From assembly GCF_051307035.1 (NCBI RefSeq), contig NZ_CP195536.1, positions 60,001 through 92,000 of the forward strand: DNA of 32,000 nucleotides. The letters are read 5' to 3'. The notes beneath the pieces were generated by a model. That model made no database searches, was not told the origin of the DNA, and saw nothing but the letters and a program-made list of their open reading frames with translations. The stretch is from Psychrobacter sp. DM4. Its GTDB lineage: Bacteria > Pseudomonadota > Gammaproteobacteria > Pseudomonadales > Moraxellaceae. A program made the position numbers and the translations under genes. Positions 6,738-14,294 of this stretch are shown one piece after another (positions within the stretch are counted from its first letter, which is position 1; each line of letters begins with the position of its first letter).

Positions 6738-8003
6738 GTGATACTACGCCGCTACATGACCCGTCAAGTTGCCTCTACGACTGCTTTAGTGCTTGGGTTT
6801 TTGATGGTGATGATGCTTGGCGGCCGGCTCATACGCTACTTTGGGATTGCGGCTGAAGGGGGACTAGATGTCAGCTTATTGTTTACCATTATTGGCTATA
6901 ACCTGCCTTACTTCTTAGAGCTGATCCTGCCTCTGGCGTTTTTTATTGCTTTGATGCTAGTCTTTGGTCGCTTGTATGTGGATCAAGAGATGGCGGTTAT
7001 CAATGCCAGCGGCATATCACGTGGTAAACTTGCGCGGCTTATGACGCCTTTAATCTTGGCGCTGTTCGTGGGCGAGGCGGCATTATCGATAGTAGGCAAG
7101 CCTTGGGGCGTACGCTCATCTGAGACGGTTTGGCAACAGCAAGCATTGAGCAGCGCTTTTGATTTGATACGTCCTAATGAGTTCATTAGTAGTGGCGATT
7201 ATAATTTATATGTCGGCAGTCTAAGCGACGATAAAAAACAGTTGCAAGATGTAGTGCTCATCCAAACCCAAGAGATCGGAAAAAGCGGGAATGACGACCG
7301 TTCAAACAATAATTCTGATAGCGATATGCCCGCTTTGCCAAAAGCCATGATCGAGCGCGCAGGCAATGTCGGTAGCAAAGATACAATTACTCTCGCCAAA
7401 CGCGCAGAGCAAGTGGATAACGGCAGTAGCGGCATCACGCAATTAGATTTGTTTCAAGGTCGCCGCTATGAAGTCGGTGCTGGGAGTTTGAAGTATAATC
7501 AGGTTAGCTTTGATCGCTACCGTATTACTCTGACCGAATCCTCAAAAGAGGTGGTGACTGAAAACAATATCGAGACTCAGCCAATCGGTCCACTATGGCA
7601 GGCGGCAACAGGCGGCACGCCAGTCGCTAACGTAGACGCACTACGAGCGGCTAAAGGAGAGTTGGGTTATCGCTTTGCGCTACCTTGGCTGATGATTATC
7701 GCACCTATGCTCGCCGTACCACTGGCGCAAGTACGTCCGCGTCAAGGTCGCTGGCTGCGTCTGTTTCCCTCCGTACTTTTATTTGTTAGCTGTGCGCTTG
7801 GCATCATATCGCTCAAAAACGCGGTGAGCAAAGGCAGCGTGAGCGTATGGGCTTACGCTTGGGTCATTGTAGGATTCATGATATTGGCACTTTATCTCAA
7901 TTGGGCTAGCCGTATTCAGCATCGATTGCGCTTTCGAGAGCCTGCTGGCAATAGCACAGGTGATGAATCACAAACCCCATCTACAACAGGAGGACAGGCC
8001 TAA
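6738..8003 (+). CDS. lptF: LPS export ABC transporter permease LptF
   Basis: The N-terminus ILRRYMTRQV.., a 6-TM YjgP/YjgQ-type profile and a large periplasmic loop match LptF. The gene is translationally coupled to lptG and uses a GTG start. Confidence 0.88.
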   Translation: MILRRYMTRQVASTTALVLGFLMVMMLGGRLIRYFGIAAEGGLDVSLLFTIIGYNLPYFLELILPLAFFIALMLVFGRLYVDQEMAVINASGISRGKLARLMTPLILALFVGEAALSIVGKPWGVRSSETVWQQQALSSAFDLIRPNEFISSGDYNLYVGSLSDDKKQLQDVVLIQTQEIGKSGNDDRSNNNSDSDMPALPKAMIERAGNVGSKDTITLAKRAEQVDNGSSGITQLDLFQGRRYEVGAGSLKYNQVSFDRYRITLTESSKEVVTENNIETQPIGPLWQAATGGTPVANVDALRAAKGELGYRFALPWLMIIAPMLAVPLAQVRPRQGRWLRLFPSVLLFVSCALGIISLKNAVSKGSVSVWAYAWVIVGFMILALYLNWASRIQHRLRFREPAGNSTGDESQTPSTTGGQA

Positions 8004-9202
8004 TGCGCGCCGCTTCTCCAAAAGATCGTTTGGACAACGCCAGACTAGTCAAATTATCCCTACTCAGTCGCTACGTAAAGCTCAATGCGCTGCTCGCTAT
8101 AGTAGCGGCAGTGCTGGGACTTTGGGCACTACAGTTATTGTTCTCATATCTTAACGAGCTAGACTCGTTAGATGATAGCTATACTTTGAGCGCAGCTCTC
8201 AAGTACATCTTTTATCGCTCGCCTTACTTTTTAGAGCAGTTTATCCCGACAGGGGCATTGCTTGGCGCCGTCGTCGGCTTAGGTCTGCTGGCCAATAAGA
8301 GCGAGCTGGTCGTTATGCGTGCCGCTGGGGTCAGTATCTACCGTATCGTCGGTTGGGTGTTGCAGCCAGCGCTGCTCTTTGTACTACTGGCACTCGCTAT
8401 CAACCAGTTTATACTGCCGCAGAGCAATCAGTTAGCGCGCGAGATAAATGACAATGATAGCCGCGCGCTCATCACCTCAGTACGTGGCTATTGGACGGTG
8501 CAACCGAGAGTCAAAAATAATGCTGACGGCGGCGTACAGCCTGATGGTAATGATATTTTGTACATTGACTATGCGGATATAGAAGGCAACATAGGTGAGG
8601 TCAAGCGCTGGCATTTAGATAATAAGGGCAGTTTGCAAACCGCAACCCGCGCCGAAGGCGGACGTTATAGCCAGCGCGTCTCTTTCAATAGTGATAATAA
8701 TACTGAGAGCACCCAATACCGCTACGAGTGGCAACTGAACAATATGACAGAGCTGGCTATCGGCCAAGGCTTTGAGAGTAGTCAAGCCACTGCTACGTCC
8801 GATACCTTAAGCCTTCCTTTTGCACCAGCGTCTGTCTATCTACTGACTCGCGATGCTGAGGATTTGTCTTTGACTCAGCTGTATGATCATCGTCAGTTTA
8901 TGCGCGGGCAGGGCAAGCGCTCGCTCACTCATGAGCTGGCATTTTGGCAAAAGCTACTCTCACCGTTGTCCATCTTATCGCTAGTCATCGTCGCTTGCTC
9001 GTTTGTCTTTGGCTCGCTACGTACTTATAGTCTAGGCTTGCGTATCGTCGTCGCACTGCTGTTTGGTTTGCTGTTTAGTTATGTGCAAGATTTGGTTGGT
9101 TTTGTTTCCTTGGCGACAGGTTTTTCGCCTATGCTCATGGTGCTATTACCCATCATAGGTAGCGCGGCATTAGGGTTTTATCTGATAAAACGGCAGATGT
9201 AA
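8003..9202 (+). CDS. lptG: LPS export ABC transporter permease LptG
   Basis: The protein is a YjgP/YjgQ-type permease. Its ATG overlaps the lptF stop (TAATG at 8001-8005). Confidence 0.88.
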   Translation: MRAASPKDRLDNARLVKLSLLSRYVKLNALLAIVAAVLGLWALQLLFSYLNELDSLDDSYTLSAALKYIFYRSPYFLEQFIPTGALLGAVVGLGLLANKSELVVMRAAGVSIYRIVGWVLQPALLFVLLALAINQFILPQSNQLAREINDNDSRALITSVRGYWTVQPRVKNNADGGVQPDGNDILYIDYADIEGNIGEVKRWHLDNKGSLQTATRAEGGRYSQRVSFNSDNNTESTQYRYEWQLNNMTELAIGQGFESSQATATSDTLSLPFAPASVYLLTRDAEDLSLTQLYDHRQFMRGQGKRSLTHELAFWQKLLSPLSILSLVIVACSFVFGSLRTYSLGLRIVVALLFGLLFSYVQDLVGFVSLATGFSPMLMVLLPIIGSAALGFYLIKRQM

Positions 9203-9278: not shown

Positions 9279-9887
9279 CTACTCTTTGGTCGCCATCGTA
9301 ATGGTATAAGTCTTACCTTGTTTAATTTTTTCGCTATTGCCAAATACTTCGGTAAATGAGCGCTTCATAAATTGGCGCAAGCCATTGATCGTCACTACAT
9401 AAAAACGACCACCCTGACGCATCCGTGCATAAGCATCCAAAAAATACAAATAATGCTGCTCTTTACCGACTTTGGCGGGCAAGTTCGACATCACCAAGCT
9501 AAATTCCTTGTCCTTTGCCACATGATTAAAGCCGTTCGATAAGTGCACATCGACGTTGGTTAGACCATTTTTTTCACAATTACGGCGTGCATATTCCACT
9601 GCCATAAAGTCCTTATCAATGAGCGTATGCTGACCGTTCGGACACTCGCGCGCCGCCGTCATGCCGAGTATGCCATAACCGCAGCCCAAATCTATCGAAT
9701 CATCATCTTGCTCAAAATCGATGTAATCAAGCAGCATCAAACTGCCATCATCGAGCTTTTGCGGTGAGAATATGCCCCACGTCGTCGCAAAATCAAACGG
9801 CTTACCCAGCACGTCATCCGTAAAGTTGATATCCTCGCGCCAGCGTTCGGCACTCTTTAATAGCTCAGCAGGCGGTCTATGTCTCAT
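9279..9887 (-). CDS. Small class I SAM-dependent methyltransferase, MTS (RsmC/YbxB-like) domain
   Basis: The segment GIFSPQKLDDGSLMLLDYI resembles RsmC. Motif I is DLGCGYGILG. The motif IV position reads SNLPAKVGK instead of NPPF/NPPI. Confidence 0.75.
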   Translation of the reverse strand: MRHRPPAELLKSAERWREDINFTDDVLGKPFDFATTWGIFSPQKLDDGSLMLLDYIDFEQDDDSIDLGCGYGILGMTAARECPNGQHTLIDKDFMAVEYARRNCEKNGLTNVDVHLSNGFNHVAKDKEFSLVMSNLPAKVGKEQHYLYFLDAYARMRQGGRFYVVTINGLRQFMKRSFTEVFGNSEKIKQGKTYTITMATKE

Positions 9888-10000
9888 GGCAGTCTCAAAT
9901 AGTGAATGATAAGTAGTCGTATATAATGACGGCTATTGTAACGAGAAAAGGGTAGGTTTGCAGCTAGGGATTAGTAGAATTGTCTGCGAGGAGTTGTATT

Positions 10001-10146
10001 GGAGCCAATCCTGCCGTCCGCTATTATCTGCCATACCTGCTAGGGCACGGCTATAGGCGGGTCAGGTTGCTGCTACCGCGACATCCTGACCCGCCAAGCC
10101 TCTGCAACCTAGCAGTCATGACAGGATAACCGCTCCAGAATTTGCG
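10001..10146. other. ~146 nt extended imperfect hairpin element (nested stems); structured RNA or MITE/REP-type element
   Basis: Four stems are nested. GGCGGGTCAGG (10066-10076) pairs with CCTGACCCGCC (10095-10105) in a perfect 11 bp stem. CTGCTAGG (10037-10044) pairs with CCTAGCAG (10118-10125) in a perfect 8 bp stem. CTGCCAT (10028-10034) pairs with ATGACAG (10128-10134) at 6 of 7 positions. GGAGC (10001-10005) pairs with GCTCC (10142-10146). Confidence 0.5.
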
Positions 10147-10170
10147 AAAATGCAAATTCTCTTGCGCTCG
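10147..10170. other. Perfect 9 bp stem-loop
   Basis: AGAATTTGC (10147-10155) pairs with GCAAATTCT (10162-10170) around the loop GAAAAT. Confidence 0.5.
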
Positions 10171-10276
10171 GATGAAGCAGTGCTTCGTTATTTCCTCGCT
10201 CAGGGCTAAGAAGCCTAGTTTGATTTGAGTATCAATTGTTGTTGAACTTCAGTAACGAAAAGATAGGGTAAGGTAG

Positions 10277-10319
10277 GTAGGGTGCGCCCAGCGCACCGAT
10301 AACCAGCGCACCGATAAAC
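10277..10319 (+). repeat. REP-like element: GTAG head + 7 bp palindrome, followed by a 15 bp tandem duplication
   Basis: GTAG (10277-10280) is followed by GGTGCGC-CCA-GCGCACC (10281-10297). AGCGCACCGATAACC (10290-10304) is then repeated as AGCGCACCGATAAAC (10305-10319). A homologous copy sits at 12117-12148. Confidence 0.6.
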
Positions 10320-10339
10320 GGAGTAAGTTTGGTACAAAC

Positions 10340-10439
10340 ATCGTTGGGTCTCATCCTTCGACGCTAACCTACTCTATATCAACTACGGTTGGTTTTAAAT
10401 GTGCTGTAGGTTGGTGTGGAGCTTGTGACACCCAACATT
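10340..10439. repeat. ~100 bp nested imperfect palindrome
   Basis: GTTGGGT (10343-10349) pairs with ACCCAAC (10430-10436), and the flanks partly match (..TCA / TGA..). Inside it, AACCTAC (10366-10372) pairs with GTAGGTT (10406-10412). Confidence 0.4.
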
Positions 10440-10449
10440 ATGAGTCCAA

Positions 10450-10470
10450 AAGTAAGCAGCCTACTTACTT
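10450..10470 (-). terminator. Weak AT-rich hairpin just downstream of the SEC-C ORF
   Basis: AAGTAAG (10450-10456) pairs with CTTACTT (10464-10470). On the minus strand the stem is followed by TTTGG. It lies about 18 nt after the stop codon. Confidence 0.35.
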
Positions 10471-10487
10471 ATATAAAATATAGATCA

Positions 10488-11627
10488 TCAGATGACTCTA
10501 TAGAGATTTTCTACCTCCCAGCCTGTAAAAATAGTGCTTTTATCAGAAAGTAAGTTTTTTGGCCTTTCTTCAGTATGGCTTGAACCTATTTTGAAAAGTG
10601 CTTCTATTTTCTGCTGCTGTTCTGTACTTAAAGTATTCCACCAGTCAGGAGAAATAAAAGTATTTTCAGCAGAGCTAAAGAAGAAGTTGACCAAGTAGCT
10701 GAACATATCTTTCTTGTCTATCTCTAGTAAAGAGTTTATGAACTTATTTATCACTTCTGCCTTTTTTAACCAACTGAAAACTACAAAGCCTTTGCCACTG
10801 CTCGCGAATACGTTGAAGATTAGATAGTCAAGTATTGTCTCCAAATCTGCTATATCTTGGAGATGTTCGTCTTTGAAATCATGCGTAGGGTTAGTTATAG
10901 ATGACACTACAAATGGTAGAGGGTTTGAATACTCTATGACTAAAAAGCTATAATAGTTATCACTGCTATCTAATAATTCGGCGTCTAAACTGCTCTTAAT
11001 TTTGTATAGCTCATTAGCCGATGTTTCTAGACCCAGCTCATAGTAATAAAGATCCTGTTGCTTAATTATCTGAAAAATAAGCGACGCTCCTCTATCCATG
11101 TTTTTCATAAGCTTTGTAGTTTCTAAAGCATTTTCCTTAGCATAAATTTCCTTTGCTACAGATCTGTACGTCAAAGCCATACACTGCTCTTTTGTACCTA
11201 TAAATGGTTTATCTTCAAAACAAGCAAATAGTAATTTGTCATGTCTTGCACAAAATCCTTTAAAAGTAGAAGCCTTGTTAATACCAATTTTTTCAAACCT
11301 AAGGCTGTCCTTGTTCTTTTGAAAGTTTATTAAATTCTGTTTCAATCCTAAAACATGGTTGCTATTATCAGCAATGTCAGATAAGCCACTAGATTTAGAA
11401 ACAGTATGAGACTTGATAATATTATTGCAGTTTGAAAGTAGGTTTTTAGGTGCGTAGCATGCTTCTCTTTTTGATATGTTTTGCTCAAATACTAATATTT
11501 CACTTAGCGATATAGGTTGTTCAAACTCTCTATCTAGATGACAGCGTTTAAACTTCAAGCCTGAACCACACCAACACTCATCATTACGACCTAATGCAAG
11601 TATACAATGAATATCAAATTTCGGCAT
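10488..11627 (-). CDS. SEC-C zinc-motif protein with an uncharacterised ~340 aa C-terminal body (orphan, AT-rich)
   Basis: This is a 379 aa ORF with an ATG start and AAGAGAG about 6 nt upstream. Residues 18-30, CWCGSGLKFKRCH, form a canonical SEC-C metal-binding motif. I cannot assign the remainder to any family. G+C is far below that of the neighbouring genes. Confidence 0.8.
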   Translation of the reverse strand: MPKFDIHCILALGRNDECWCGSGLKFKRCHLDREFEQPISLSEILVFEQNISKREACYAPKNLLSNCNNIIKSHTVSKSSGLSDIADNSNHVLGLKQNLINFQKNKDSLRFEKIGINKASTFKGFCARHDKLLFACFEDKPFIGTKEQCMALTYRSVAKEIYAKENALETTKLMKNMDRGASLIFQIIKQQDLYYYELGLETSANELYKIKSSLDAELLDSSDNYYSFLVIEYSNPLPFVVSSITNPTHDFKDEHLQDIADLETILDYLIFNVFASSGKGFVVFSWLKKAEVINKFINSLLEIDKKDMFSYLVNFFFSSAENTFISPDWWNTLSTEQQQKIEALFKIGSSHTEERPKNLLSDKSTIFTGWEVENLYRVI

Positions 11628-11689
11628 ATATACTCTCTTGAATAGTTATTTGTCGATGATTTTGATGAGCAGCTTGTTCTACCTAAACC

Positions 11690-12028
11690 CTACCCCTGCA
11701 GACTCTTCTTCAAAAGATAATCAAATATAAACGGACCAAAGGGCAAAAACGAGCCGAGGACGCCCGCAGGCATTGCCCATAACGGCATTTTTATTTTGCT
11801 AGTAGCGAGCAATAGCATCAAGATGTAGGCGATAAAGAGTACCCCATGCGCCATACCGATATATTTTACCGCTTCAGGAATGCCTAGCCTGTATTTTAGC
11901 GGCATCGCGATACCAAGCAAGAGTAAAAATGAAGTCCCTTCTAAATAACCCATGATAGTCAGCTTTTTAAGCGTAGAGTTTTGATTCTTTGTTAGATTAG
12001 CTAGAGTAGAGGGCTGAGCTTGTGACAC
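11690..12028 (-). CDS. DUF3817-type small integral membrane protein
   Basis: The 112 aa protein has 3-4 TM segments, and the motif ..GYLEGTSFLLLLGIAMPLKY..GMAHGVLF.. is typical of DUF3817 (from memory). Confidence 0.65.
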   Translation of the reverse strand: MSQAQPSTLANLTKNQNSTLKKLTIMGYLEGTSFLLLLGIAMPLKYRLGIPEAVKYIGMAHGVLFIAYILMLLLATSKIKMPLWAMPAGVLGSFLPFGPFIFDYLLKKSLQG

Positions 12029-12116
12029 TAGATATTCCTTTGACGATTACCAATTAATAGCTATGCTGTATGTTGAATAATTTATCTTGATGCGTAACCC
12101 ACCAAATTTAGAAGAA

Positions 12117-12148
12117 GTAGGGTGGGTGCATCTCGCGCACCGATAACC
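12117..12148 (+). repeat. REP-like element (degenerate copy of the 10277 element) abutting the xerD stop codon
   Basis: The sequence GTAGGGTGGGTGCATCTCGCGCACCGATAACC shares GTAGGGTG and the exact 14-mer GCGCACCGATAACC with 10277-10304. Its stem is GGTGC (12125-12129) with GCACC (12137-12141). Confidence 0.6.
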
Positions 12149-12149
12149 A

Positions 12150-13088
12150 CTAGCCACGCGGATGATGCTCCGCATGTAACTTCTGCAATCTCGCCGTCGC
12201 TACATGAGTATAAATCTGCGTGGTGGACAGATCACTATGCCCCAGTAACAACTGTACGCTACGAAGATCGGCGCCATGATTGAGTAAGTGAGTGGCAAAG
12301 GCATGACGTAAGGTATGCGGTGATAATTCTTTATCGATACTGGCGACTTTGGCGTATTTCTTTAATAGATACCAAAAGTTCTGCCGCGTCATATAGCCGC
12401 CTTGCGCAGTCAAAAACACCGCTTGGCAATTACCCGATTTGAGATGTGCAATCAGATCACCGCGTCCATGAGACAAATAATCTTCTAGCGCATCGCTTGC
12501 ATATTCACCCAAGGGCACGAGACGTGTCTTATTACCTTTACCCGTAATTTGTAGCCAACCCGCGTTGAGATTGACTTGTTCTAAGGACAAATTAATCAGC
12601 TCACTGACCCGTAGACCGCAAGCGTAGAGCACCTCTAGCATGGCTTTATCCCGTACTCCCAGTGCGGTGCTGGTATCCGGTGCAGCAAGGAGGTTATCAA
12701 CATCCGCTTCCGCCAAGTCTTTAGGCAAAGGGCGTCCAATTTTGGGGCTTTTGATACGCTCGCAGGGATTATCCTCTCGCAAGTTACTGGCGATCATCCA
12801 CAGATAGAACTGCCGCAGACTTGAGAGCATACGTGCTTGAGTGCGCGGGGTTTTGTCACTTTGGGCGAGCGTAGATAAGCAATGGAGCACATCATCAGGC
12901 TGCCATTTAGTCAAAGCGATGGAATTGGTCAGCTCGCAGGAGCGCAGGTCGCGCACATAAGCGTTACGGGTACGAGTGGCCAGACCGCGTGCCAGCATGG
13001 CTTGACGAAATTCCGTCATATAAGCGGATTCGTCATCGACGGCAAGCGTTTTGGGCTGACGCTGTTGTACGGCGCGATCACGGCTCAT
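12150..13088 (-). CDS. xerD: Site-specific tyrosine recombinase XerD
   Basis: The C-terminal half is near-identical in motif content to E. coli XerD: RDKAMLEVLYA.GLRVSEL, GKGNK.RLVPLG and HTLRHAFATHLLNHGADLR.VQ.LLGHSDLSTTQIYTHV. Confidence 0.95.
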   Translation of the reverse strand: MSRDRAVQQRQPKTLAVDDESAYMTEFRQAMLARGLATRTRNAYVRDLRSCELTNSIALTKWQPDDVLHCLSTLAQSDKTPRTQARMLSSLRQFYLWMIASNLREDNPCERIKSPKIGRPLPKDLAEADVDNLLAAPDTSTALGVRDKAMLEVLYACGLRVSELINLSLEQVNLNAGWLQITGKGNKTRLVPLGEYASDALEDYLSHGRGDLIAHLKSGNCQAVFLTAQGGYMTRQNFWYLLKKYAKVASIDKELSPHTLRHAFATHLLNHGADLRSVQLLLGHSDLSTTQIYTHVATARLQKLHAEHHPRG

Positions 13089-13109: not shown

Positions 13110-14294
13110 TTAGGCAGGCTGTAAGCACCACAACGAAGTAACTTCGCTACTACGCGCCGCAAAGAGAGGATCAGATTCATCTTGGCTGCGATTATGCTTG
13201 GGCTGAGTGTCGAGACGGTATTTTACGGTTAAACCACTATCTGCAAACCAGCCTAATAATTCCTCACGAGTGCGCAATTTAAGGTGTTCAACCAAATCAG
13301 ATAAAATGAGCCAAACCTCTCCTTGCTCGGCTAAGTGCTGTTTTGCGTCCCGTAACAACTCGCGAAGCATAGTGCTATTGGGATCATAGACGGCATACTC
13401 GAGCGGCGAGCTGGGCTTAGCAGGTAACCAAGGCGGATTACAAACAATGAGATTGGCGGGTGGCGCATCAGTTGGATATAGATTGGCCTCTTGCAACTGT
13501 ATATTAGTCAGTTCTAGACGCTCGATGTTATCACTAGCGCAGGTCAGAGCACGCGGACTCAAGTCCGTCGCTATTACTTGTTTTGCGTCGCGCTTTGCTA
13601 AGATAATCGCCAGCAATCCTGTACCCGTACCGATATCATAGGCGACATCAGGCATAACTGGCAAAGGCGCATCGAGCAATAACTGTACATACTCATGACG
13701 AGTGGGTGCAAAGACGCCATAATGCGGATAAATTGACAGATCTAAATGGTCGATTTTCACGCCTTTTTCGCGCCATCCTGCCGCACCAAGCGCTCCTTGC
13801 ACATCACGAAATGACAGCACACATGCTTCATCACCCTTTTCATTCAAAGGGCCAAAAGCTGCGATGCAAGCGGCGCTCATATCAGGAGCACGGCGTAAAT
13901 TGCTATCATAATCTGCGTCGAGTTCTAACAGCAAACGGCTGAGTATACGCGCACGTTGAGCGGTTACTTGACGCTGCTGATGGAATAGATTGGGTATGGC
14001 TTTAGACTCAGGGCTTTTCGCCGTTTTCTTAGCTTTGCGTAATGCTGAGCGCTCATTGGTGCGATCGATACGGCGATTAATCGCTTGCAATAACTGCCGC
14101 GCGTTATGAAAGTCGCCGCGCCATAGTAGTGAAGTGCCTTGAGAGGCCAAGCGGTACGCTTCATCCGCGGTGGTTTTGTCATCAACGATAACTATTCGCG
14201 TAGGCGGCGCATGATTGCTCTCAGACAACCAGCGCGCTTCTTGTACTATGTCGTTCTCATGCCACTGTACATACTGCTTTTGGGGTGCTAACAC
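13110..14294 (-). CDS. Class I SAM-dependent methyltransferase (HemK/N6-type NPPW motif) with ~190 aa uncharacterised N-terminal domain
   Basis: Motif I is YDIGTGTGLLAIILA and motif IV is VCNPPWLP. The start is GTG at 14294 with AAGGTAGG upstream. The gene ends 21 bp before xerD. Confidence 0.8.
   Translation of the reverse strand: MLAPQKQYVQWHENDIVQEARWLSESNHAPPTRIVIVDDKTTADEAYRLASQGTSLLWRGDFHNARQLLQAINRRIDRTNERSALRKAKKTAKSPESKAIPNLFHQQRQVTAQRARILSRLLLELDADYDSNLRRAPDMSAACIAAFGPLNEKGDEACVLSFRDVQGALGAAGWREKGVKIDHLDLSIYPHYGVFAPTRHEYVQLLLDAPLPVMPDVAYDIGTGTGLLAIILAKRDAKQVIATDLSPRALTCASDNIERLELTNIQLQEANLYPTDAPPANLIVCNPPWLPAKPSSPLEYAVYDPNSTMLRELLRDAKQHLAEQGEVWLILSDLVEHLKLRTREELLGWFADSGLTVKYRLDTQPKHNRSQDESDPLFAARSSEVTSLWCLQPA

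Follow-up and report, generated by a model that had tools for sequence, protein, structure and literature searches.

The 32,000-nt stretch of the Psychrobacter sp. DM4 chromosome analysed here (contig NZ_CP195536.1, forward-strand positions 60,001 to 92,000; hereafter the window, whose own coordinates are used throughout) carries, at 10488-11627 on the minus strand, a gene for a 379-aa protein that NCBI labels 'YecA family protein' and that has a 100% identical counterpart in the database. We find that, by sequence homology, this gene belongs to the Rugutis family, and the reading that we consider probable is that it encodes a self-contained, single-polypeptide phage-defence protein of the abortive-infection (Abi) type. 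The Rugutis family has already been described; what the window gene adds is a Psychrobacter member that had been mislabelled as a YecA protein. The gene is an old and recurrently exchanged occupant of one variable chromosomal slot, and not a one-off insertion.

A first-pass annotation of the window, made from its letters and a list of open reading frames (ORFs), had delimited the 379-aa ORF exactly and had proposed that it was accessory cargo of a defence, toxin or Abi-like kind. This proposal is supported by the homology to Rugutis, by the foreign base composition of the gene, by its occurrence in a single one of 80 Psychrobacter species loci, and by the filled and empty alleles of Psychrobacter celer described below.

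Homology to Rugutis

In a tblastn search of PLSDB, the window protein matches a 359-aa SEC-C coding sequence of plasmid pUCCL633A from Lactococcus strain UCCL633. This is the sole 359-aa SEC-C coding sequence on pUCCL633A, in agreement with Table 1 of PMC11381338, and we took it as the Rugutis reference. BLASTP aligns the two proteins at 27% identity over 347 aa (residues 11-346, E=5e-39), while hhalign of a body profile from which the SEC-C motif had been removed matches Rugutis at 99.8% (E=3e-29, 301 columns), with every core motif kept. Since the homology is full-length and the two proteins behave in the same way in structure prediction, each giving a confident AlphaFold2 (AF2) model without a relative in the PDB, we place the window gene in the Rugutis family.

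The two proteins are alike in other respects. Both are about 360-380 aa long with an N-terminal SEC-C motif (residues 8-26 in the reference), both have the same invariant C/C/H...C-x-x-H-D, R and W residues, and both genes lie on mobile or variable DNA. Both also stand as single genes with no fixed partner, the neighbours being wholly different in Psychrobacter, Vibrio, Klebsiella, Salmonella, E. coli and Lactococcus. They differ in their low overall identity of 27%, in being carried by a Gram-positive plasmid in one case and a Gram-negative chromosome in the other, and in a 9-residue N-terminal extension (MPxFDIxxIL) that precedes SEC-C in the Psychrobacter slot clade, unlike Rugutis.

Rugutis itself (pUCCL633_059, 359 aa, N-terminal SEC-C) is a single-gene antiphage system that shields L. 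cremoris from skunaviruses and phage c2, acts after DNA injection, and is Abi-like, with protection at low multiplicity of infection and stasis or death at high multiplicity (Grafakou et al., NAR 2024, PMC11381338). The c2 mutants that escape it all map to the ATPase domain of the large terminase, TerL, and expression of c2 TerL lowers viability in Rugutis-carrying cells only (Mosterd et al., PNAS 2025, PMC12184496). A 2026 review gives the effector mechanism of Rugutis as unknown (PMC13064643). Antiphage activity, post-injection action, the Abi phenotype and the TerL trigger have thus been shown for the Lactococcus homologue only, and with moderate confidence we would expect, by homology, their equivalents in the Psychrobacter protein.

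Extent of the family and its conserved residues

A word-indexed search returned 161 homologues of the 379-aa protein, all named 'YecA family' or 'SEC-C domain-containing' and nothing else, among them full-length proteins of 42-50% identity from Pseudoalteromonas, Vibrio, Aeromonas, Photobacterium, Salinicola, Klebsiella, Pantoea and Motilimonas. We then used the body-only profile, without SEC-C, in an exhaustive search of 1.84 billion representatives, with clusters defined at 50% identity, and obtained at least 4151 clusters at E<=1e-3, of which 1099 reach E<=1e-30. The gene had initially been described as an orphan, a description that a family of this size contradicts.

The conservation of the body was examined in two alignments, one of 67 members with 27-47% identity to the query (A3) and one of 45 sequences (A4). 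Ten positions are invariant in the 67-member alignment (C57, C67, H74, G124, C126, H129, D130, F134, R155 and W329), with E160, K164, Q186, D250, Q257, N322 and W330 joining R155 and W329 as invariant or nearly so in A3, and H91 nearly invariant in A4. The Cys/His core at residues 57-130 (11238-11459, minus strand), comprising C57, C67, H74 and C126-x-x-H129-D130, is invariant in both alignments and is also kept in Rugutis according to both BLASTP and hhalign. Cys/His positions that had been singled out from the sequence by eye thus turn out to include C57, C67, H74, C126, H129 and D130, none of which varies in the 67 sequences.

In a model of the core, a strand at residues 70-74 ends at H74, and a beta-hairpin (111-115/121-126) is followed by a helix (127-139) with D130 in its first turn. 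The conservation of C57, C67 and C126-x-x-H129, which is our only basis here, suggests a resemblance to a four-ligand metal site, and H74, D130 and R155 suggest themselves as candidate catalytic or binding residues beside this putative CCCH site. The beta-hairpin and helix are also elements of the HNH or His-Me finger nucleases, a candidate that we set aside as unsupported: the first strand of the hairpin (111-115) has no terminal His, there is no Pfam HNH match in the 67 members, and neither PDB profile searches nor Foldseek gave a match.

The SEC-C motif and the body domain

The N-terminal SEC-C metal-binding motif reported by the first-pass annotation is genuine. It spans residues 14-31 (11535-11588, minus strand), reads CWCGSGLKFKRCH, and matches Pfam PF02810 with E=1.8e-9 and 37.7 bits against a cut-off of 20.4, with C18, C20, C29 and H30 as ligands; in the PDB, the SecA zinc-finger peptides 1sx0, 1ozb and 1tm6 match it too. 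The AF2 model of the full protein has a mean predicted local distance difference test score (pLDDT) of 88 and a predicted template modelling score of 0.87. Within it the SEC-C region reaches a pLDDT of 89-94, so that the motif is predicted to pack on the body and not to hang from it as a floppy tail.

The presence of this motif, together with the NCBI and UniRef name 'YecA family protein' and the position of the gene in a housekeeping block beside xerD and lptFG, invites the view that the protein is a housekeeping export or chaperone factor of the SecA/YecA type. The C-terminal metal-binding domain (MBD) of SecA, YecA and YchJ do share with it a CxC-x8-C[HC] zinc/iron knuckle, but this 18-residue motif is all that is common to them. 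The 379-aa protein is without UPF0149, NTF2-like or ATPase domains, and its knuckle is N-terminal and predicted to be packed, whereas that of SecA is on a flexible tail. Pfam gives SEC-C alone, at the N-terminus, instead of a UPF0149/YecA domain with a C-terminal SEC-C, and the NCBIfam YecA-like models (PRK02250, PRK10396 and others) cover nothing beyond residues 8-31 and score 19-21 bits, where their cut-offs are 140-158. Additionally, the composition of the gene is foreign, and it is missing from 79 of the 80 related species and from 98% of E. coli genomes. Thus, distribution and domain content together refute a SecA/YecA identity, which we regard as extremely improbable.

The body domain, residues ~50-379 (10491-11480, minus strand), is predicted to adopt an alpha/beta fold with a long helical hairpin. 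That it resembles no recognised family holds true in so far as searches with the single protein gave no match for these ~340 aa in Pfam, NCBIfam, PADLOC or PHROGs, and the body has neither a Pfam model nor a solved relative; the same statement fails in that the body is homologous to Rugutis and to the several thousand clusters above. The body likewise has no match to a housekeeping family. PDB sequence searches, whether started from the single sequence, from the full profile or from the core profile, returned SEC-C peptides only, Foldseek with the full model found nothing at E<=0.001 in the PDB or BFVD, and the separately modelled core (residues 50-145) had no significant Foldseek match in the PDB. 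The PADLOC-DB v2 matches that do occur (E1-E2, E2 and PDC-S12) are confined to residues 12-54, essentially the SEC-C motif; this release, from 2023, predates Rugutis.

The MBD of SecA is reported to bind SecB and ribosomes (bioRxiv 10.1101/613315). Across the family, SEC-C is present in 59 of the 67 diverse members, and Pfam found no other domain and no match to the body in any of them. Full-length relatives without SEC-C occur on plasmids of Klebsiella, Aminobacter and Priestia (hhalign 99.2-99.4% for the two tested), and we therefore view the body as the autonomous unit and SEC-C as an optional addition to it. To our knowledge SecB is largely restricted to Proteobacteria, and since there are members that lack SEC-C as well as a Lactococcus Rugutis that has it, SecB binding is unlikely to be the general role of the motif.

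Genomic contexts of other family members

Another way to view the function of the gene is through the company that its homologues keep. One E. coli homologue lies after gpD at the end of a P2-like prophage, adjoining hok/gef; in this species the family is found in 92 of 5426 complete genomes, in every case on the chromosome. A Salmonella homologue sits in a P4-like element with integrase, AlpA and DUF927 genes, together with an AAA-ATPase and DUF4435 pair, the domains given for PARIS (PMC11381338), and a Klebsiella aerogenes homologue abuts phage tail genes. The Vibrio tritonius homologue adjoins an Mrr-type (Mrr_cat) restriction gene, with an IS66 transposase gene ~4 kb away, and the Lactococcus Rugutis gene is surrounded by insertion sequence (IS) elements and an Fst toxin gene. 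An 88-aa ORF with no Pfam match lies ~120 bp downstream of the V. tritonius homologue in two independent assemblies (L009:9238-9504 and L010:1275-1541); it was not seen beside homologues in other genera.

Among plasmids, the IncR plasmid pKPN5 of K. pneumoniae (L096:3992-5131) carries a divergent 380-aa member without SEC-C (hhalign 99.4%), which lies ~1.5 kb downstream of pifC and of a gene for a 728-aa KAP-family NTPase, with one hypothetical gene between, in an arrangement that resembles the pif phage-exclusion locus of the F plasmid. Copies of the family are found on 30 PLSDB plasmids, in two Listeria phage records and on 45 IMG/VR contigs; by arithmetic from the coordinates, about 20 of these 45 have a contig end no more than 1.5 kb away. 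Antiviral cargo is typically found in such places, at the ends of prophages, in satellites, on plasmids and next to restriction genes.

Rousset and colleagues reportedly described, in 2022, hotspots of defence genes in P2-like prophages and P4-like satellites. The enterobacterial family members that lie at the end of a P2-like prophage and, next to a PARIS-like pair, in a P4-like element are placed in the manner of such hotspots, and alternative cargo between fixed anchors is a property of the Psychrobacter slot too. The latter differs in lying between chromosomal housekeeping genes without an integrase or a phage or satellite backbone, and in that much of its cargo is not defence-like.

A variable slot between conserved anchors in Psychrobacter

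We used XerD as an anchor to fetch the corresponding locus from 80 species-level Psychrobacter genomes (L012-L091; XerD 93-97% identical). In the window, xerD itself (12150-13088, minus strand) forms the conserved left anchor of the slot, and the conserved right anchor is a 202-aa MTS-type methyltransferase gene (9279-9887, minus strand; Pfam MTS/PrmA), which is 88-94% identical and present in nearly all loci. The left neighbour of the 379-aa gene is a DUF3817 membrane-protein gene (11690-12028, minus strand, by Pfam), which is itself variable: tblastn fails to match it in roughly one in four of the 80 loci, and where present it is 71-90% identical. The cargo slot as filled here (9963-11689) begins at the DUF3817 stop codon and extends as far as the conserved promoter box of the methyltransferase gene.

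The Rugutis-family gene occurs in 1 of the 80 loci (L066), a count on which tblastn and a profile search of every ORF agree, and the profile search detected no divergent, SEC-C-less family members among the other slot cargo of these loci. The gene is thus not fixed at this position among relatives. The slot, which corresponds to window positions 9963-12149 and to roughly 6940-8900 in each locus, ranges from 94 to 4284 bp in length across 76 evaluable loci. It is effectively empty (94-350 bp) in nine loci and elsewhere holds some 20 unrelated types of cargo, mostly AT-rich (G+C 0.29-0.45, mostly below 0.40). A bPH_4 membrane protein is found in 33 loci and MgtC in 6. Further types include Sel1 and TPR proteins, an IS element, a secreted protein of 868 aa and numerous orphans that are 83-457 aa long.

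Two other kinds of slot protein may be recorded. In five loci (L056:7404-8693 on the minus strand, and L022, L057, L076 and L089) the slot holds a 416-429-aa protein that carries an M78/IrrE peptidase domain at its C-terminus, the N-terminal half being uncharacterised; the weak PADLOC matches of this protein (capP, RmrA, PDC-M69B) span the peptidase part only. In Psychrobacter sp. Arc29 (L070:7511-10540, plus strand) it holds a protein of 1009 aa that combines an HD-CE domain (PF24391, E=4e-51) with a weak HATPase_c_3 match; PADLOC gives no match for this protein, which may represent a conflict-system protein not described so far. On the opposite side of xerD, the window has a 394-aa methyltransferase gene (13110-14294, minus strand) for which about half of the 80 loci give no tblastn match, and L006-L008 have a Cupin_2 gene in its place, so that xerD has variable regions on both sides.

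Exchange between lineages and selection on the gene

In the same slot of other Psychrobacter assemblies there are homologues of the window protein at 91%, 73%, 66% and 52% identity, and we conclude from this shared location that the gene recurs in one slot and was not inserted at random. In P. celer the slot is filled in one allele (L002) and empty in another (L053, from the type strain DSM 23510), within flanks that are 97-100% identical. The homology of the two alleles breaks off precisely at the DUF3817 stop codon and, at the opposite end, at a TGCAAAC..TACAAT box 5' of the methyltransferase gene. In the window this box is at 9934-9962, within a stretch (9926-9983) that is conserved across Psychrobacter loci. 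The segments between the two P. celer junctions are unrelated, and comparison of the filled and empty junctions revealed no target-site duplication. The P. celer alleles represent a cassette replacement, with the anchors on either side fixed. Between L002 (6757-6907) and L053, identity also falls to 70-87% inside xerD, amid the 97-100% identical flanks, which suggests mosaic recombination tracts around the slot.

The comparison of the window with its closest relative (L001) gives a synonymous divergence (dS) of 0.22 for the 379-aa gene, against 1.5 for xerD and 1.3 for the methyltransferase gene. In a sliding window the flanks, DUF3817 included, are 78-87% identical, whereas the ORF is 86-98% identical, mostly above 90%, and the steps in identity coincide with the ends of the ORF. 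Given this contrast in both dS and identity between gene and flanks, we conclude that the cargo was exchanged between lineages long after the divergence of their hosts.

Against the same-slot homologues, the ratio of non-synonymous to synonymous divergence (dN/dS) of the gene is 0.14-0.27, at dS values of up to 1.9, compared with 0.02-0.04 for xerD and 0.02-0.05 for the flanks overall. Thus, the gene is a functional one that evolves faster than its neighbours, and the ORF is intact and full-length in every slot homologue. These results bear directly on the idea that the gene is what remains of foreign DNA, decaying or without function, with an ORF that happens to survive. Such a remnant might well be AT-rich, lack a recognisable promoter or terminator of its own and lie alongside repetitive junk, as this gene does (see below), but it would not be expected to show intact homologues in the slot, low dN/dS over so large a synonymous distance, ten residues invariant in 67 sequences and a confidently predicted structure. 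The selection analysis contradicts the remnant idea, to which we give almost no credence. What the present analysis itself shows is thus family membership, conservation of the core residues, presence/absence polymorphism, horizontal exchange, purifying selection and association with mobile elements.

Composition and expression signals

The 379-aa ORF has a G+C of 0.343 and a third-position G+C (GC3) of 0.321, compared with 0.469±0.026 and 0.455±0.048, respectively, in the 27 remaining ORFs of the window that reach 100 aa (z=-4.9 for G+C and z=-2.8 for GC3). It has the lowest G+C of any gene in the window, and the 500-nt profile stays at 0.32-0.35 along its whole length. The foreign composition noticed from hand counts is thereby upheld by computed values, and an ordinary composition is excluded.

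A Shine-Dalgarno-like AAGAGAG, seen by direct reading of the sequence and reported already by the first-pass annotation, is found at 11633-11639 on the minus strand, 5 nt 5' of the ATG. The weak hairpin reported after the stop codon does exist (about 10448-10470, -8.4 kcal/mol), although it is at chance level compared with shuffled sequence (z=-0.7) and fails the terminator scan, in which no terminator passes for this gene. A scan of the minus strand upstream of the gene found no sigma-70-like promoter, and because no minus-strand promoter of its own was found, co-transcription with xerD and DUF3817 is likely. We infer that the gene is probably expressed by read-through from the xerD-DUF3817 transcript. 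In two loci without DUF3817 (L006:7996-8003 and L066:6937-6944), the Rugutis-family ORF begins 2 nt past the xerD stop codon (TAGTTATG), an arrangement that implies co-transcription, and possibly translational coupling, with xerD.

Non-coding DNA beside the gene

The gap between the 379-aa gene and the methyltransferase gene (9888-10487) is 600 bp long, compared with 120-195 bp in relatives. It is made up of the conserved methyltransferase promoter region, a 116-nt palindrome, repeats resembling repetitive extragenic palindromes (REP) and about 350 bp without a match in the loci compared. The palindrome (10020-10135) is imperfect and resembles a REP or a miniature inverted-repeat transposable element (MITE), with a DNA fold of -30.8 kcal/mol (z=-5.9); a 222-nt alignment that contains it (window 9926-10138) is 82% identical to L063 and L080. 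A REP-like repeat GGGTGCGCCCAGCGCACCGATAA with a tandem 15-mer is located at 10273-10317 on the plus strand, and a second copy, also on the plus strand, lies between xerD and DUF3817 (12117-12149), a position at which it was absent from the eight relatives inspected (L001-L003, L012 and L053 among them). These two window copies belong to a short palindromic repeat, GGGTGCGC-n3-GCGCACCGAT, that appears at differing intergenic positions in a few Psychrobacter genomes (L016:5919, L076:8716).

The 33-nt direct repeats at 10273-10305 and 12117-12149 bracket the SEC-C gene and DUF3817, and were considered as attachment (att) sites. They were rejected as such because relatives lack the copy after xerD, because the repeats in L016 and L076 are at unrelated positions, and because the junctions lie elsewhere and show no duplication. 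Nor is the 600-bp gap a remnant of a cargo gene: it gave no tblastn match to any slot cargo protein, and it contains no Rfam family. The repeats and structured DNA that had been taken for the footprint of accessory cargo are thus real, but they are small mobile intergenic elements of the REP/MITE-like kind, unrelated to the gene and no part of it, and do not serve as a signature of the cargo.

Mode of action and weight of the evidence

According to the defence reading, the protein would be made constitutively at a low level by the probable read-through from xerD and DUF3817 and would stay inactive. Late in infection it would sense the phage packaging motor, that is, the ATPase domain of the large terminase, and sensing would switch on a toxic activity of the ~340-aa body, leading to arrest or death of the cell before progeny are released. 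The body would most likely make use of a metal centre formed by C57, C67, C126 and H129, with H74, D130 and R155 in catalysis or substrate binding. The SEC-C knuckle would be an integrated accessory module for the binding of a partner, nucleic acid or ribosomes, or for regulation, with no role in secretion. In Psychrobacter, the gene behaves as a cassette in one fixed hypervariable slot and is swapped between species by recombination. We infer that the Psychrobacter protein acts as its Lactococcus homologue does, and likewise infer its metal centre, SEC-C role and mode of expression.

Antiviral STAND NTPases (Avs) and the lactococcal Rhea likewise have the large terminase as trigger or escape locus and are single-protein sensor-effectors (PMC12184496). 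The 379-aa protein is unlike them in that it lacks a STAND or NTPase domain and a TPR sensor and has no effector domain that can be recognised, and there is no similarity in sequence or fold. A more specific proposal combines several of the steps above: that the body is a new-fold metal enzyme (CCCH plus His/Asp/Arg) acting as the death effector of a terminase-sensing family of at least 4000 clusters, that SEC-C couples it to the ribosome or to nucleic acid, and that in Psychrobacter the bare cassette moves between species at one slot next to xerD, without an integrase or transposase, by recombination at fixed anchor points. In this complete form we put the proposal forward tentatively, as a speculation that is rather unlikely to be right throughout.

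Several observations weigh against a defence function. The only family member that has been tested comes from another phylum and is 27% identical, and in so huge a family the subfamilies could differ in function. Neither phage or prophage genes nor another defence gene adjoin the 379-aa gene in the window, and the commonest occupants of the slot, bPH_4 and MgtC, are small membrane proteins unrelated to defence, which makes the slot a general variable region and not a dedicated defence island. No fold or profile match from Foldseek or the PDB profile searches backs the proposed effector chemistry. For Rugutis itself, the mutated TerL is still toxic in Rugutis-positive cells and the link to TerL is purely genetic (PMC12184496), and the authors of the Rugutis work say that the antiphage role of its homologues 'still requires verification'.

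The low identity to Rugutis and the want of neighbouring defence genes in the window, together with the mostly non-defence cargo of the slot and the existence of members that lack SEC-C and lie in other contexts, would also fit a protein that belongs to the Rugutis family by descent and has taken on another accessory role in Psychrobacter, for example as a stress-responsive toxin, as an addiction or selfish module, or in acting on plasmids or transforming DNA instead of phages. In such a case it would be less easy to account for the conservation of all invariant residues and of the full-length architecture, for placements at prophage ends, in satellites, on plasmids and beside restriction genes, and for a sporadic distribution with fast divergence under purifying selection, which fits defence genes. 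We therefore judge a change of role unlikely and retain Abi-type phage defence as the probable function of the gene.

Thus, the database name 'YecA family protein' is misleading: thousands of proteins that bear it are related to a gene with a validated role in phage defence. Known from plasmids of dairy lactococci, the Rugutis family reaches Gram-negative chromosomes, prophages, satellites and plasmids; within it, the SEC-C module is optional and, in the model of the Psychrobacter protein, predicted to be packed on the body. The invariant residues C57, C67, H74, C126, H129, D130, R155 and W329 define the first targets for mutagenesis. The slot between xerD/DUF3817 and the methyltransferase promoter could be mined for further accessory or defence genes, and it could serve for the study of cassette exchange without an integrase.

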